This document shows positions 8,142 through 12,773 of a DNA stretch of 12,773 nucleotides, in pieces. A program made the position numbers and the translations under genes. Position 1 is the first letter of the stretch. The number at the start of each line of letters is the position of its first letter. Under the pieces are notes generated by a model. The model did not search any database, had not been told where the DNA came from, and worked only from the letters and a program-made list of their open reading frames with translations. Origin of the DNA: a virus; UHGV virus genome UHGV-1672225. One strand, given 5' to 3'.

Positions 8142-8798
8142 ATGAAAAGCAACGACGAGAACATCAAGAAAGAAATAGGTCTGCGCATTCAGACTCTACG
8201 GAAACAATCCGGCATGACTGCCGGAGATCTCCAGCAAGTCACTGGAATAGGCTTAAGCACCTTGCAGAACTATGAGGCCGGATTAAGACAACCATCTATA
8301 CCTGCCATCAAGAAAATCGCGCACGCCCTGAAAGCATCAGCGCCTTATATCGCGTGCTTAACAGATAACCCGTTCCCACCCCAGAATACTAACGCTCCTG
8401 TTATTCCTGGGCTTGTAGCTATAAAAAATGACATAGCATCGCACGCCGGAGAAAAGCCAGTGCTGGCGATAGAACAGGAGATTCTACGAAGCAAGAACAT
8501 CAACCCATCGTCTCTGTCAGTTCTCCAGAGCAACGATGAGTTAATGTCACCAACAATATCCCCAGGCTCCCAAGTCCTGATTAATACAGACGATACAGAG
8601 ATTCATGAGGGGATCTATGCCCTTGAAGACAGAAATGGCCTGGTTGTTTTGAGGCACTGTAGAGTCATACCGGGTGACAATGCTGTTATGCTGTCAACCG
8701 AAAGGGATGCTGAAATGAACACTAAGCATCTGAATAACGAGGAATTTAAGCGTTATAAAGTTCTTGGCCGCGTAGTTAGTGTTGTCAACTGGTTATGA
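8142..8798 (+). CDS. CI-like phage repressor (XRE-type HTH plus S24 LexA-like peptidase domain)
   Basis: N-terminal LRIQTLRKQSGMTAGDLQQVTGIGLSTLQNYEAG is HTH-like; the C-terminal 100 aa has an S24-like fold pattern; divergent from the Cro-like gene. Confidence 0.7.
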   Translation: MKSNDENIKKEIGLRIQTLRKQSGMTAGDLQQVTGIGLSTLQNYEAGLRQPSIPAIKKIAHALKASAPYIACLTDNPFPPQNTNAPVIPGLVAIKNDIASHAGEKPVLAIEQEILRSKNINPSSLSVLQSNDELMSPTISPGSQVLINTDDTEIHEGIYALEDRNGLVVLRHCRVIPGDNAVMLSTERDAEMNTKHLNNEEFKRYKVLGRVVSVVNWL

Positions 8799-8804
8799 TA
8801 CACA

Positions 8805-8822
8805 GCACGGCGAAAGCCGTGC
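8805..8822 (+). terminator. Hairpin after the repressor gene (weak or partial terminator)
   Basis: GCACGGC-gaaa-GCCGTGC, 7-bp stem with a GAAA loop, followed by ATTTCT. Confidence 0.35.
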
Positions 8823-8840
8823 ATTTCTACGCTCAAAAAA

Positions 8841-8855
8841 ACCACATTTTGTGGT
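8841..8855. promoter_or_regulatory. Fourth operator-like palindrome, downstream of the CI-like gene
   Basis: ACCACATTTTGTGGT, same half-sites as the switch-region sites; a TTGACA lies 2 bp downstream at 8857-8862. Confidence 0.5.
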
Positions 8856-8890
8856 TTTGACAACATGTAAAAGTATAAAAGAGGCTACGC

Positions 8891-9265
8891 ATGGAATTAC
8901 ATACAGCCAATAAAAACGAAACTCTGATCACTGCTGGAATCGAAATCCAAGCGTTGAACATAGCGATTGAGTGTATGTTATGCCAAATCATTGATAATGA
9001 GAAAGATATCGACTGGATAGAATCTATCCTTCATCTGGCATCAGAACAAAAAGTCTGCCTCAAAACGGCCTTACAATACGATGTGCCAGCGGTATCGAAG
9101 CTGTGCCAGCCATTGATGGCATATAACAGGGCTATTATTTCTGTATGCCTCATGATTCTTGATGAAACCCCCCCTCTTAGCGACCGCTCAGAAGCTGCTC
9201 TAACCCTCTCACGTAAACAGCGACAGCTAGCAAATCAACTGATATCAACGATAGCTGACCTCTGA
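8891..9265 (+). CDS. Hypothetical protein (124 aa) downstream of the repressor
   Basis: ORF with AAGAGG RBS, own operator-like site upstream and an intrinsic terminator downstream. Confidence 0.5.
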   Translation: MELHTANKNETLITAGIEIQALNIAIECMLCQIIDNEKDIDWIESILHLASEQKVCLKTALQYDVPAVSKLCQPLMAYNRAIISVCLMILDETPPLSDRSEAALTLSRKQRQLANQLISTIADL

Positions 9266-9269
9266 CTGC

Positions 9270-9289
9270 AAGCGGGCTAACGCCCGCTT
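9270..9289 (+). terminator. Intrinsic terminator-like hairpin after the 124-aa gene
   Basis: AAGCGGGC-taac-GCCCGCTT, 8-bp stem, followed by AT-rich sequence. Confidence 0.45.
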
Positions 9290-9290
9290 A

Positions 9291-9392
9291 TATGATTATA
9301 GATTTATATAATTATATAAAACGCTTTTCATCAGCCAAAAAGTTGGTTATGCTTACCTCGTTCTATAAATATAGATTTATAGAATTATATAA
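9291..9392. promoter_or_regulatory. AT-rich arrays with TATA boxes at 8-bp phase upstream of parA (candidate operator or centromere-like site)
   Basis: 9296-9321 TTATAGATTTATATAATTATATAAAA and 9361-9392 TTCTATAAATATAGATTTATAGAATTATATAA; the second also contains the palindrome TCTATA-AA-TATAGA. Confidence 0.4.
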
Positions 9393-9415
9393 CCAAACAC
9401 ATGGAGTCTCGACAA

Positions 9416-10069
9416 ATGACTATCTCTGTAGGTATTTTCAACGGAAAAGGCGGCGTAACAAAATCAACAATTGCCCGTGCTTTAGCAGTTGCTTATGCAA
9501 AGGCTGGCTGGAATGTATGCCTGATCGATATGGATGTGCTTAACGGAACGGTAACGCGTTGGGTACAACGCAGAATGGCCAACAATATCGAACCAGCAAT
9601 CGCGGCGCAGCCGTGCGGCACACCATCACAAGTCCAGAAAATCATCGAATCAGAAGTATACGACCTGGTTATCGTCGATGGCGGTGCCTACGCATCTGAA
9701 TCAGTACCGAAGCTATCTGAATTTCTGGATATGGTTATTTTGCCAACCCGATTCTCTACCGATGACCTGGAAACCACCGTTAACACTGCTCACGGCATCG
9801 TTAAAAAGGGTGTACCAATCAAGAAAATTTGCATGGTGTTTTCCGGCGCGGCTGAAAACGAAGCTGACTATATTGAAGCCCAAGAGTACCTGGCTAATAC
9901 GCCATACTTTGTTGTCGATAAGTACATTCCCCACAAGCCAGCTCTGAGCAAAGCTCAGGATAAGGGCTTAAGCCTCATTGAGTGCTCATACGTTGCGCCA
10001 CGCAAAAAGGCAGACGACGTTATTCAGGGGATTATCAACCAGCTTGAGGCTCTGACTACTGCCGCATAA
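9416..10069 (+). CDS. parA: Small ParA-family (deviant Walker A) ATPase, type Ib partition-like
   Basis: Start at ATG 9416 (GGAG 10 nt upstream) rather than 9401. Deviant Walker A GKGGVTKST, Walker B-like DLVIVDG, about 217 aa. Confidence 0.65.
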   Translation: MTISVGIFNGKGGVTKSTIARALAVAYAKAGWNVCLIDMDVLNGTVTRWVQRRMANNIEPAIAAQPCGTPSQVQKIIESEVYDLVIVDGGAYASESVPKLSEFLDMVILPTRFSTDDLETTVNTAHGIVKKGVPIKKICMVFSGAAENEADYIEAQEYLANTPYFVVDKYIPHKPALSKAQDKGLSLIECSYVAPRKKADDVIQGIINQLEALTTAA

Positions 10070-10100
10070 TATATAATTATAGTTTTATAGATTTATATAA
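10066..10100. promoter_or_regulatory. Third TATA-phased AT-rich array between parA and the RHH gene
   Basis: TATAtaatTATAgtttTATAgattTATAtaag: four TATA boxes at exact 8-bp spacing, overlapping the parA stop. Confidence 0.4.
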
Positions 10101-10112
10101 GAGGGGATACAC

Positions 10113-10361
10113 ATGGCCGCACCATCAAAACCACCAAAGAAGAACAGCAAAGGCGTACCGCCATCGATCGAACAACCGCAGGTTTTCGACCCGACTGAAA
10201 CGCCAACCAGAACCAAATCAGGTGGGGCACAAATGGCGTTTAACGTCGACCCTGAATTTAAACGCGAGTACAAAACGTTCGCCAGCTCAATGGATATGTC
10301 ATTGAAAGAAGTGCTGACAAAGTCTTTTGAGTTACTCAAGGCTCAATACAACCAGAAGTAA
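10113..10361 (+). CDS. Ribbon-helix-helix DNA-binding protein, ParG-like partner of ParA
   Basis: 82 aa; flexible basic N-terminal tail, then MAFNVDPEFKREYKTFASSMDMSLKEVLTKSFELLKAQ with a beta-strand/helix/helix pattern; AAGAGGGGA RBS. Confidence 0.5.
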   Translation: MAAPSKPPKKNSKGVPPSIEQPQVFDPTETPTRTKSGGAQMAFNVDPEFKREYKTFASSMDMSLKEVLTKSFELLKAQYNQK

Positions 10362-10423
10362 GAGAAGGTGACGGCCTCCAGCGCCAACTGTTGGCCGTCG
10401 CGACACAACAAGGGGAATTTGTT

Positions 10424-10573
10424 ATGTCCGAGCAACAATATACACGGTTACTGAAAACTCGTCTAACCGACCTCAAACGGCTGCAAGCTGGCTGCTTATT
10501 TGCCCTGCTATCCACCAGGCCAGAATGGGTACGTGAAGCAGTTCTGAAAGGCTTAATGCGCTCCAGCGTTTAA
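10424..10573 (+). CDS. Small hypothetical protein (49 aa)
   Basis: ATG at 10424 with AAGGGGAA RBS; last ORF before the terminator at about 10590. Confidence 0.3.
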   Translation: MSEQQYTRLLKTRLTDLKRLQAGCLFALLSTRPEWVREAVLKGLMRSSV

Positions 10574-10590
10574 ATTCAGCCATAAAAAAA

Positions 10591-10606
10591 GGCCCCCGAA
10601 GGGGCC
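10591..10606 (-). terminator. Intrinsic terminator hairpin (minus-strand orientation, possibly bidirectional)
   Basis: GGCCCC-cgaa-GGGGCC preceded on the plus strand by 7 A (a U-run on the minus transcript); no T-run on the plus side. Confidence 0.45.
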
Positions 10607-11132
10607 TAATCGCTACTTGCTGCTAATGTTTATCGTCACATTCAGAGCGTTATCAGTAATCTTCCAACCCTCCCCATGTGGCGTAAACAAAGCCCCAGTA
10701 ACAACGATAAAAATACACATACAGTATTTTTTCATTGTATGGCCCTTACAGGCCGTTTCACGGCATCCCCACCGACGAAAACAACGCGAGAGCAAGCACG
10801 GCTGCTTGTGCTTGCATGTACGGCAACGGAGAATCCTCCCCTAAAGTCGGTGCCCGGGTGCGAATCGGCGGGAAGGTCCACAGGTATTTTACGATTATTT
10901 TAAGATTAGTAATAGGAAAGAAATTAAACGAAAAAACTCGTTTATTTTCACAAAATCAGTAACCTACCCACAATCTGTGAGTTTGCAGGCACAACAAGAA
11001 CCACAATTTTTTGAAGCATAATAGTGGACTATTATTACCTTTTGGGTAAAATTAACTTGCTGCTTGTGCTTGCGTGGTTGTTTATACAACAACGTAATGC
11101 TGAAAGGACCGCGAATCCGATCAGCACGAAAG

Positions 11133-11159
11133 AACCGTCCTCAATAGGGCGGTTTTTTT
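11133..11159 (+). terminator. Intrinsic terminator inside the ORF-poor region
   Basis: AACCGTCC-tcaata-GGGCGGTT (8 bp, one G-U) followed by TTTTTGTTT. Confidence 0.5.
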
Positions 11160-11305
11160 GTTTCTGCCTACCAATAAACCCACGCTATGTGGTTGTCTCT
11201 GTTAAAATCCTGCCGTATTGACATGAATGCGCCATTGGTGGACACTTTCCGAGCCGTAGCAAAATCTACGGTCGGGATTGGAACCCCGATAATCATCATG
11301 GCGCA

Positions 11306-11326
11306 TACCGCGTTAGCGGTTTTTTT
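11306..11326 (+). terminator. Second intrinsic terminator in the leader (candidate sRNA 3' end)
   Basis: ACCGC-gtta-GCGGT followed by a 6-T run; a perfect -35 TTGACA lies about 90 nt upstream at 11218-11223. Confidence 0.4.
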
Positions 11327-11491
11327 ATGCGTAAAGCACTGCTACACCCAAATTATGGTGGGGCGTGCGGGGGAGTCGTAAGACTCGCCGGATTCCATGG
11401 TGACCGGTAGTTCCAACCCTGTACGTCTCACCACCCAATGATTGGAACCAGACGGTGGTGAGTATCCTTAACCTTTAAGGGAACTATCACC

Positions 11492-11683
11492 ATGACAAAC
11501 TTACCCCATGACTATTACGTCAATCTCGTAAAGATCCTTCTCAAGAAAGCCTCATACGCCGATAAATTCCGCCTGACTGAAATCATCGAGCGCGAAGCTA
11601 TGCGCATCGCCAGCAACGATAACGCTGTTTCTGACGCAAAAATCTCCCTCGTAACCAAAGTAGTTATGGGAGGTGCAAAATGA
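11492..11683 (+). CDS. Small protein (63 aa) translationally coupled to the antirepressor-like gene (icd-like position)
   Basis: ORF with AAGGGA RBS; its stop overlaps the next ATG (ATGA at 11680-11683). Confidence 0.4.
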   Translation: MTNLPHDYYVNLVKILLKKASYADKFRLTEIIEREAMRIASNDNAVSDAKISLVTKVVMGGAK

Positions 11684-12773
11684 AAACGCTTCCGACCGTT
11701 AACACCCTACAGCCTATCCTGCATAACCAGATCCCCGTTATCACCACGGAGCTGCTTGCCAAACTATATGGCTGTAGCGTCGAATGTCTTCACAGAAATC
11801 ACCACCGTAATAAGTCCCGGTTTACAGAAGGAAAACATTTCATAGTTGTAAAAGGTACAGATCTCCAAAGTTTGAAAATCTCTTTAAGAGATTTTCAAAC
11901 CATCGCGAATAACGTTAGAAAGCTCATCCTCTGGACCGAACGCGGGGCTGCACGTCACGCTAAAATGCTCGAAACCGATCAGGCATGGGATGTATTCGAA
12001 CGGCTGGAAGACTGCTACTTCAACCAGAACGCGCAAACGGCCGCGACCGTAACCGTCTCGCCAAACAATGCTCGTGAGGTTGTCGATACGCTCAACGCCA
12101 AACCGATGTTTTACATTAAAGTGTGCAACAACGAGCCACTCACAACCTCAGCCGATGTTGCCCAGGCATTCAGCACCACAAACAATTCCATCGTTATGGC
12201 CATCGATGCGCTACGCATTCCTCGCACGGCTGCGGCGCGTCACTTCTTTAAAGAGCAACGACCGTTGGAAGGAAGCGACCGCGAAATAACAATCTATCGC
12301 ATGACAAAAGACGGATTTACCTTGCTCATGGAGAGTATCGACGGTCCAGGCGTGAAAGATATCAAGCTGGCCTACATTGAAGCCTTTAACGCTATCAGCA
12401 GCGTGTTAAAAACACAGTACGAGCGTGATCTGGCTAAACGACTGTACCAGGAAAAAACGATTATCCGCGCGGCAACAGAGCATAATCGGCTATTAACGGA
12501 ACCGAACTACAGGAAGGAACTAATCAAGGAGTTTGACAAGGCAACAGGGAAAACCAAAGCGGCGCTAAATCTGCCAGCAATGACTCAGGAAAATGTGATA
12601 TCAGCCTTACTTCTTGATCTGCTCAGAAACGCCAGAGCACTTATCAGCTTTGACGAAAACCTGAATCCTCAGCTCAAGCTACTACCACCGACAGGCAAAG
12701 TAGTCGACCAGGCTGATCACAACAGCATACTCAGCGTACTGGATGCAAACCTGCCAGCCAGGACACTACAGGA
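11680..12773 (+). CDS. ORF6N plus Rha-domain antirepressor-like phage regulatory protein (3' truncated by the window end)
   Basis: Hand translation from ATG 11680 (GGAGG upstream) is open for more than 364 codons to the window end; it is absent from the ORF track because no stop lies in the window. N-terminal region resembles the recalled ORF6N domain; the central region resembles a Rha domain. Confidence 0.6.
   Translation, partial: MKTLPTVNTLQPILHNQIPVITTELLAKLYGCSVECLHRNHHRNKSRFTEGKHFIVVKGTDLQSLKISLRDFQTIANNVRKLILWTERGAARHAKMLETDQAWDVFERLEDCYFNQNAQTAATVTVSPNNAREVVDTLNAKPMFYIKVCNNEPLTTSADVAQAFSTTNNSIVMAIDALRIPRTAAARHFFKEQRPLEGSDREITIYRMTKDGFTLLMESIDGPGVKDIKLAYIEAFNAISSVLKTQYERDLAKRLYQEKTIIRAATEHNRLLTEPNYRKELIKEFDKATGKTKAALNLPAMTQENVISALLLDLLRNARALISFDENLNPQLKLLPPTGKVVDQADHNSILSVLDANLPARTLQ

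Follow-up and report, generated by a model that had tools for sequence, protein, structure and literature searches.

What is encoded by the roughly 0.9 kb of DNA that precede the antirepressor operon of the virus genome UHGV-1672225? The stretch in question (positions 10,574-11,491) belongs to a window of 12,773 nucleotides (nt), which is the whole piece of DNA that was analyzed. A sequence-only reading had treated it as a single structured leader of the operon, poor in open reading frames (ORFs) and carrying a candidate c4/IsrK-like antisense RNA module. The window is 100% identical to circular Escherichia coli plasmids of ~47 kb, e.g. pSCU-204-5 (NZ_CP053252.2), and ~90% identical to three Yersinia phages of 49 kb (vB_YpM_39/41/44). 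The annotation of NZ_CP053252.2 is that of a phage-plasmid, with P2-like tail and baseplate genes, lysis genes, RepA, ParA, a RelE/ParE pair and an XRE/S24-type repressor. Nothing is annotated at 10585-11491 in the ~70 complete E. coli plasmids or the three Yersinia phages that carry this stretch.

Our analysis indicates that the span very probably comprises two independent RNA control modules, a timP/TimR-type locus of the type I toxin-antitoxin (TA) class (10585-11160) and an immI/immA-type switch (11218-11494 together with the operon). It holds four small RNA genes, those of timP, TimR, IsrK and C4, and both kinds of system are already known. Three Rfam covariance models matched above their gathering scores, namely ryfA, isrK and C4 (E=5e-37, 1e-13 and 8e-16, respectively, values well outside the range of chance), and the same three matches were found in identical order in all nine relatives examined. 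The window type and these nine relatives form a comparison set of 10 related plasmids and phages, within which L002/L003/L004-L008/L010 are referred to below as the 82% variants. The analysis demonstrates family membership, anatomy, conservation of promoters and terminators, and covariation in every proposed intermolecular pairing. The c4/IsrK-like designation thus holds for ~280 bp (11218-11494), while the remaining ~590 bp belong to a different system.

The immI-type module starts with a promoter on the plus strand, TTGACA-17-GACACT (11218-11246). The perfect TTGACA at 11218-11223 had been recognized by the sequence-only reading, and GACACT lies 17 nt downstream of it; both hexamers are identical in all 10 elements and the predicted transcription start is ~11253. 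Since this start equals position 1 of the isrK model, the transcript of about 75 nt that had been proposed to run from TTGACA to the second of two plus-strand intrinsic terminators is the IsrK RNA. The isrK match (RF01394; 70.2 bits, gathering score 50) covers exactly this interval (11253-11326, plus strand, 74 nt) and describes an IsrK-type RNA composed of a c4-a1b1 leader and a leaky terminator. Both of the terminators proposed earlier are present, with ends at ~11160 and 11326. The second one, recovered by the terminator scan, has a stem of only 5 bp (ACCGC-GTTA-GCGGT followed by T7, 11307-11326). In a permissive scan the c4-a1b1 family (RF03163) was placed on top of isrK at 11240-11292, with 38.2 bits against a gathering score of 46.7 (E=9e-8). 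The RNA has the features of the IsrK family: a promoter of its own, three hairpins of which the last is an intrinsic terminator, and an antirepressor operon directly downstream.

Two short segments of IsrK are complementary to C4. The first, a1 (UUGGAAC, 11278-11284), forms the loop of IsrK hairpin 2 and is the complement of a' of C4; the second, b1 (UCAUCAUGG, 11293-11301), lies in the linker and pairs with the b' loop of C4 with one G.U. Both co-vary with their partners, a1 in three types. A hairpin at 11272-11289 that had been described as T-arm-like (TCGGG-ATTGGAAC-CCCGA) is indeed present, but its supposed relation to tRNA did not hold, and a tRNA or tmRNA origin was rejected, as ARAGORN identified neither in the window. 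No C1-type operator is evident at the isrK promoter. A LexA box was also considered there and discarded, as by eye CTG-N10-ATG does not fit CTG-N10-CAG.

The antisense repressor of the module is not this ~75-nt RNA, which carries the target mimics a1 and b1; it is the C4 RNA, which had been overlooked and is located past the second terminator (11351-11438, plus strand; RF01695, 84.3 bits, gathering score 45, model positions 1-87). A scan with the Rfam C4 and IsrK models, suggested at that time as a check, returned both families above their gathering scores. The mature C4 RNA is probably ~77-82 nt long and contained within the Rfam span. It folds into a long stem enclosing two hairpins (z-score -4.6), and 6 of its 27 pairs are doubly compensated across seven sequences, including those of P1 and Gifsy-1. 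The loop of hairpin 2 presents b' (CAUGGUGA, 11396-11403), which is the exact 8-nt complement of b2 (UCACCAUG, 11487-11494), a site spanning the start codon of the first ORF of the operon (a 63-codon frame, hereafter ORF63). The single-stranded junction contains a' (GUUCCAA, 11410-11416), the exact 7-nt complement of both a1 and a2 (UUGGAAC, 11442-11448). The a2 site is situated 4 nt past the end of the C4 model, as in P1. Downstream of a2 there is a predicted local hairpin (11454-11491; fold -16 kcal/mol) that would hold the Shine-Dalgarno sequence of ORF63 (AAGGG, 11477-11481).

The proposed pairings can be followed through natural variation in the 10 elements. Three versions of a' occur (GUUCCAA, AGGCUAA and ACGCCAA), each accompanied by the compensating sequence in both a1 and a2, so that a2 co-varies with a' in all variants. 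Likewise, there are three versions of b', each matched in b1 and at the ORF63 start codon. The matrix of cognate and non-cognate duplexes is block-diagonal, the a-type cognate duplexes being predicted at -8.5 to -10 kcal/mol versus 0 to -5.7 kcal/mol for the others. The a and b types are found in five combinations and have thus been exchanged independently. At the level of sequence, this natural a/b variation is the decisive evidence for pairing of C4 with its targets.

Two other candidate sites were rejected. A contiguous 15-nt C4 target, GGAACUAUCACCAUG (11480-11494), co-varies only in its b2 half; its GGAACUA half is kept in L007 despite a different a', which places the real a2 at 11442-11448. 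The segment GGUGGUGAG (11454-11462), considered as a competitor for the 3' stem strand of C4, is more simply explained as the 5' arm of the ribosome-binding-site hairpin.

The operon of this module begins with ORF63 (11492-11683, plus strand; phrog_7886, E=4e-47), which encodes 63 amino acids (aa) and occupies the position of P1 icd. Its stop codon overlaps the ATG of the next gene within ATGA, as expected from the earlier claim of a small ORF coupled to an antirepressor. The antirepressor gene (11680-12773, plus strand) encodes ORF6N and Phage_pRha domains (Pfam) and matches several PHROG anti-repressor families, with E values down to 1e-54. It runs beyond the end of the window; in the identical plasmid NZ_CP053252.2 the product has 380 aa. 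In four relatives (L005:2888-3311, L006, L009 and L010) what is annotated after ORF63 is only a shorter gene, a "Rha family transcriptional regulator" that begins ~420 nt downstream; this suggests that the ORF6N part is disrupted in these elements or is listed as a pseudogene.

Only 24 nt separate the IsrK terminator from C4, leaving no room for a promoter, so synthesis of both C4 and the operon mRNA requires read-through of the terminator. The switch may be envisaged as follows. The single promoter would yield mainly the 74-nt IsrK, stopped at the weak terminator and bearing the target mimics a1 and b1. Read-through transcripts would contain C4, and on the model of P1 RNase P probably releases it from them. 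The exposed a' and b' of C4 could then pair with a2 and with b2 over the ORF63 AUG, blocking ORF63 translation, and this block would silence the translationally coupled antirepressor. In P1, the block of ant expression works through Rho polarity. By competing for C4, IsrK would shift the balance to synthesis of the antirepressor and induction of the prophage, and the a/b sequences would define immunity specificity. The excision of C4 by RNase P, the translational block, the polarity on ant and the relief by IsrK are all proposed here from experiments on P1 and Gifsy-1.

The layouts of P1/P7 immI and N15 immA had been named as models for this region, a comparison that is borne out by isrK and C4 matches in P1, N15 and Gifsy-1 (isrK being sub-threshold in P1). 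In the P1 record the order is promoter(s), a1, b1, c4 (77 nt), a2 (4 nt after c4), b2, icd and ant1. The present module shares with it the promoter-a1-b1-C4-a2-b2 order, the location of b2 at the ribosome-binding site of a small ORF, and the antirepressor gene overlapped by ATGA. The C4 model matches both (84 bits here, 69 bits in P1). The P1 leader is matched by c4-a1b1 and, with a sub-threshold score, by isrK, which indicates that these two Rfam families describe one element. P1 and P7 are heteroimmune, their specificity differing through changes of the a/b sequences; the covariation observed here points to variation of the same kind. There are also differences. An intrinsic terminator is placed between b1 and C4 in the present module (isrK 70 bits here versus 35 in P1), b2 covers the AUG here whereas it lies 10 nt upstream in P1, and the gap between a2 and b2 is 38 nt here versus 22 nt in P1. 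Moreover, neither the small ORF nor the ORF6N+Rha antirepressor is related to its P1 counterpart (Icd and Ant1, respectively). The RNA cassette is thus conserved, while its cargo genes differ from those of P1.

In N15 immA, isrK (62 bits, with an annotated terminator) is likewise followed by C4 (79 bits). In the N15 record (NC_001901), the isrK match ends at the annotated "putative rho-independent terminator" and the C4 match (L135:4302-4389) overlaps the 5' end of gene 32, annotated as "transcriptional repressor". Gifsy-1 (NC_010392, L014) carries isrK at 34316..34240 and C4 at 34214..34131 (69 bits), directly upstream of anrP. In both elements, as in the window, isrK with its terminator is followed within ~25 nt by C4 and then by the antirepressor operon; however, their first annotated ORF starts inside C4, while here, as in P1, a separate 63-aa ORF is found 54 nt past C4. 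Co-occurrence of the isrK and C4 Rfam families has already been noted in APSE phages, and blastn retrieved the isrK-C4 unit from 171 phage records.

The work on Gifsy-1 offers another view of the same cassette, in which IsrK is a trans-activator that remodels a long mRNA and the "C4" stretch is merely an inhibitory cis-structure. In that phage, some transcription proceeds past the isrK terminator, Hfq binding has been shown, and IsrK supplied in trans raises antirepressor translation ~140-fold; the data were explained by cis structures A and B together with a coding "orf45" (PMC4825925). The overlap of the first ORF with C4 in Gifsy-1 and N15 fits such an explanation. However, in the window separate a2 and b2 sites, co-varying with a' and b', follow C4, and a separate ORF has its start codon in b2. 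In the P1 record, c4 appears as a 77-nt RNA, and a2/b2 as sites for repression of icd ant translation. In Salmonella, a processed short RNA, STnc1160, accumulates from exactly the C4 stretch of Gifsy-1 (PMC4825925); it is probably the Gifsy-1 C4 RNA. Both the published start codons of orf45 (+107/+120) and the positions whose pairing with IsrK was established by mutation (+159 to +175; PMC4825925) fall inside the Rfam C4 match, and from these coordinates the orf45 region would correspond to C4. Read with the C4 coordinates, the Gifsy-1 trans-activation is the pairing of a1/b1 with a'/b'. A purely cis-acting "C4" is therefore unlikely for the present module. IsrK pairs with the a'/b' region under both views, so the trans-activator and the C4-repressor readings are largely compatible. 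As c4 is not mentioned in the Gifsy-1 IsrK paper (PMC4825925), the coordinates join two literatures, on P1 c4 and on Salmonella IsrK, that do not cite each other.

Upstream of the immI-type switch, the span is organized differently. The strongest Rfam match, ryfA (RF00126; 141.8 bits, gathering score 80; full length, 1-296), lies on the minus strand at 10585..10881 and corresponds to a timP mRNA of ~297 nt, consisting of a 5' untranslated region (5'UTR) with stem-loops, a toxin ORF and a terminator. A putative -10 box, TAAAAT (10886..10891, minus strand), was deduced from the sequence, with the start at ~10879-10881; it reads TAATAT in the 82% variants. Within the 5'UTR, CACCGAC at timP nt 30-36 (pseudoknot site 1, 10846..10852) is a 7-bp complement of GUCGGUG (site 3, 10770..10776), and this pairing is preserved in K-12 through two double changes. 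The terminator is a hairpin, AGGCCCC-UUCG-GGGGCCU, followed by a U-tract (10590..10607, minus strand; terminator scan and sequence). The earlier statement that the region has no convincing ORF requires correction in one respect: a conserved minus-strand ORF of 40 codons (10735..10613) begins with ATG at +147 of the RNA, encodes a putative TimP-like toxin of 40 aa (MKKYCMCIFIVVTGALFTPHGEGWKITDNALNVTINISSK) that aligns with K-12 TimP, and stays in frame through a 3-nt indel in L008.

Divergently from timP, a TimR-like antitoxin small RNA (sRNA) of ~102 nt is predicted at 11059-11160 (plus strand; fold z-score -5.5), with 66.7% identity to K-12 timR and the same 5' end, GCUG, as annotated there. 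Its promoter, TGGACT-16-TAAAAT (11025-11052, promoter scan), is conserved across the variants while the flanks diverge. The first of the two terminators, previously assigned to the operon leader, is the 3' end of this sRNA (AACCGTCC..GGGCGGTT+T7, ending at ~11160), and 10585-11160 is a separate, divergently transcribed timP/TimR-like locus. The first 18 nt of TimR are predicted to form a duplex with timP nt 64-81 in the 5'UTR (CAUGCAAGCACAAGCAGC, 10801..10818, minus strand), with one G.U. Across the variants this duplex shows two compensatory double changes, AAGCAG in timP and CUGCUU in TimR being replaced by AAACAG/CUGUUU or AAGCGG/CCGCUU. Cognate duplexes are predicted at -36.5 and -42.6 kcal/mol, versus -21 and -26 kcal/mol for the plasmid-chromosome cross pairs.

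The spacer between the divergent promoters (10892-11024) is variable across the 82% variants and carries no assigned element. In these, a near-perfect palindrome, CCTTCATAATGAAGG, is located upstream of the timP -10 box, and the window type has an unrelated AT-rich block there (10892-10960), so the promoter-proximal region of timP-TimR has been swapped and the RNAs kept. A search of the span for iterons or centromere repeats revealed only the TimR/timP repeat and two terminator tails. Sub-threshold matches to RNAI (26.7 bits), Phe_leader, PhrS and Atu_C8 overlap the TimR and timP terminator regions and were treated as chance.

Salmonella timP provides the reference for this part of the span: its ORF starts at +145 and its duplex with TimR comprises 18 nt (PMC7667032), and the mRNA contains a 7-bp SL1-SL3 pseudoknot (PMC11228461). 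The locus described here agrees with the chromosomal system (ryfA/STnc2070) in its full-length ryfA match, in a peptide of ~40 aa with a hydrophobic N-terminus and a start at ~+145, in a divergent sRNA of ~100 nt with 18-nt 5' pairing, and in the 7-bp SL1-SL3 pseudoknot and the Shine-Dalgarno hairpin. It differs in its site, which adjoins parA on a phage-plasmid instead of lying between sseA and sseB, and in the distance between the promoters (178 bp versus 400 bp in K-12). Identity to K-12 is only 61.7% for ryfA and 66.7% for timR, and the pairing sequence is different, with weak predicted cross-pairing. We propose that the 7-bp pseudoknot and the Shine-Dalgarno hairpin in the 5'UTR of the ~297-nt minus-strand mRNA gate translation of the 40-aa membrane-toxin-like peptide, and that TimR would block this translation through its first 18 nt. 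Toxicity of TimP and its antagonism by TimR are assumed by analogy with the Salmonella work.

Might this ryfA/timP-like part be a decaying remnant of chromosomal origin, with the immI module alone functional? A peptide that falls below the NCBIfam cutoff, a locus only 62% identical to K-12 ryfA and the lack of annotation in any record are what such decay could produce. Nevertheless, the TimP ORF is intact in all 10 family members, including the one with the in-frame indel, and in two viral contigs among the IMG/VR matches listed. Compensatory changes preserve the toxin-antitoxin duplex in at least three sequence versions, one of them the cognate pair of contig L069 (see below); the pseudoknot and the Shine-Dalgarno hairpin have been retained, as have both promoters. 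The ryfA score is well above gathering, and reaches 162 bits in the P1-like contig. Decay of the locus is accordingly very unlikely.

The initial notion of the whole 0.9 kb as one structured 5' leader of the antirepressor operon, with the terminators acting as attenuators, draws on the arrangement of the plus-strand signals, since TimR and isrK, each with a promoter and a terminator, and finally the operon follow one another in the same direction. In the window and in four other relatives, the TimR terminator and the isrK promoter are separated only by a spacer of ~57 bp (11161-11217 in the window), a distance at which read-through from TimR into isrK is possible. In the five remaining relatives (L002:6766-7305, L003:2359-2931, L006, L008 and L010) this very site is occupied by a gene of the HTH_3/XRE type on the opposite strand (573 nt, 189 aa), and both modules are intact on either side of it, so they are separable. 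The inserted gene may encode a second regulator of the immI promoter. A minus-strand RNA family match of 142 bits, furnished with an ORF, a promoter and a terminator of its own, furthermore accounts for half of the span. The first terminator forms the end of a homologue of the K-12 sRNA timR, and P1, N15 and Gifsy-1 carry the immI-type module without a timPR module. The single leader is thus highly improbable. The idea of a protein missed because of a sequencing frameshift, prompted by several mechanical ORFs of 60-75 aa that overlap the span, can be dismissed almost entirely, as the sequence is 100% identical in at least five independently sequenced plasmids, these ORFs are not conserved and no conserved long ORF runs across the 10 aligned variants, the 82% variants have non-triplet indels and replaced blocks in 10882-11050, and the stretches that are conserved can be assigned to RNA families or short signals.

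Several observations nonetheless weigh against the two-module reading or against parts of it. All transcript ends of both modules are predictions, the -10 hexamer of the isrK promoter (GACACT) is weak, and the hairpin that sequesters the Shine-Dalgarno sequence (11454-11491) is statistically indistinct (z = -1.65). BLASTP revealed no similarity of ORF63 to P1 Icd or of the antirepressor to Ant1; as these proteins are unrelated, Rho polarity and an Icd-like activity are not to be assumed. The putative toxin matches NF040796 (toxic_TimP) end to end (1-40/40; E=7e-5), but with 23 bits, below the cutoff of 45. Finally, an addiction role could already be filled by the RelE/ParE type II system of the same plasmid.

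The distribution of the timPR copy was examined in several collections. With blastn, the timPR version was detected in 72 of the 5,426 complete E. coli genomes, and 73 of the 74 places were on plasmids of ~47-51 kb; at E<=1e-3 the timPR query did not reach the chromosomal ryfA of these genomes. In PLSDB and INPHARED (blastn) the version was found only in the present plasmid/phage family. IMG/VR was scanned for a degenerate TimP-core DNA sequence followed by an ORF filter; among the 120 stretches listed, 118 were chance matches and two passed. At least one further lineage was recognized there, represented by IMGVR_UViG_3300036772_000294 (L069), a P1-like contig of 80 kb with DarA, DdrB-ParB and Rep3. 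Its ryfA scores 162 bits and is accompanied by a TimR of its own, for which the 18-nt duplex is a different one; the contig also has isrK and three C4 copies. In this contig two C4 genes are arranged in direct tandem, followed by isrK and the third C4 (L069:1324-1745), ~5 kb from the ryfA/TimR locus; the presence of several C4 genes within a single immunity region seems unusual. No close relatives of this lineage were found in the annotated collections.

In the literature searched, the timPR papers describe no plasmid or phage copies and no paper joins ryfA with a phage-plasmid, so that a timP/TimR pair on such an element appears to be unreported so far. A paper on Yersinia phage HQ103, considered as a source on the present family, concerns a different element of 32 kb. 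The location of timPR next to parA and its poor predicted pairing with the chromosomal system make an addiction (post-segregational killing) or defence module its most likely role, as judged from position. A likely functional analogue of the partition-adjacent timPR is hok/sok of plasmid R1, in which a plasmid-borne mRNA for a small membrane toxin is likewise under the control of a small antisense RNA (PMC5367252). The two systems are unrelated in sequence and structure; in contrast to Sok, which is cis-encoded and overlapping, TimR is divergent and only partly complementary. The joint proposal of a mobile timP/TimR lineage serving as a phage-plasmid addiction or anti-phage module, combined with IsrK as a dedicated C4 decoy, is offered tentatively, as one that is nearly as apt to be right as wrong.

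The genes upstream of the span lie on the plus strand (8142-10573). They encode a CI-like repressor with a helix-turn-helix domain and a weak Peptidase_S24 match (8142-8798), a phrog_7632 protein (8891-9265), ParA (9401-10069), an 82-aa phrog_6024 product (10113-10361) and a 49-aa ORF (10424-10573). The timP terminator hairpin (10590-10607) is where this operon and timP converge. One member of the family is the 48.5 kb plasmid NZ_CP009073.1 (L003) of the E. coli quality-control strain ATCC 25922, which contains all four RNA genes. The plasmid combines an 82% timPR variant with a different C4 b-type, and the strain would be a convenient experimental host.

Neither module overturns current understanding. 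If IsrK is indeed a C4 decoy, lysogeny in this family would depend on three RNAs acting as a switch (a repressor, a decoy and the target mRNA), the a/b cassettes would be reshuffled independently among near-identical plasmids to give new immunity types, and the published Gifsy-1 "orf45" would really be C4 RNA. The three a-types and three b-types in five combinations represent a ready-made test bed for RNA-based immunity specificity. The timPR module is present in at least two lineages (the 47-kb family and the P1-like 80-kb contig). If these represent a mobile timPR as proposed, with an antitoxin-target sequence so diverged that it is insulated from the chromosomal TimR of the host, a family described so far only on chromosomes would join the few type I families on mobile elements. 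A survey found most enterobacterial type I TA families to be absent from such elements (PMC5367252), and the phage-plasmid timP/TimR bears on the open question of why these families seem mostly chromosomal. In the current annotation of these phage-plasmids, that of ATCC 25922 included, nothing points to the four RNA genes on which plasmid retention and prophage induction probably depend.

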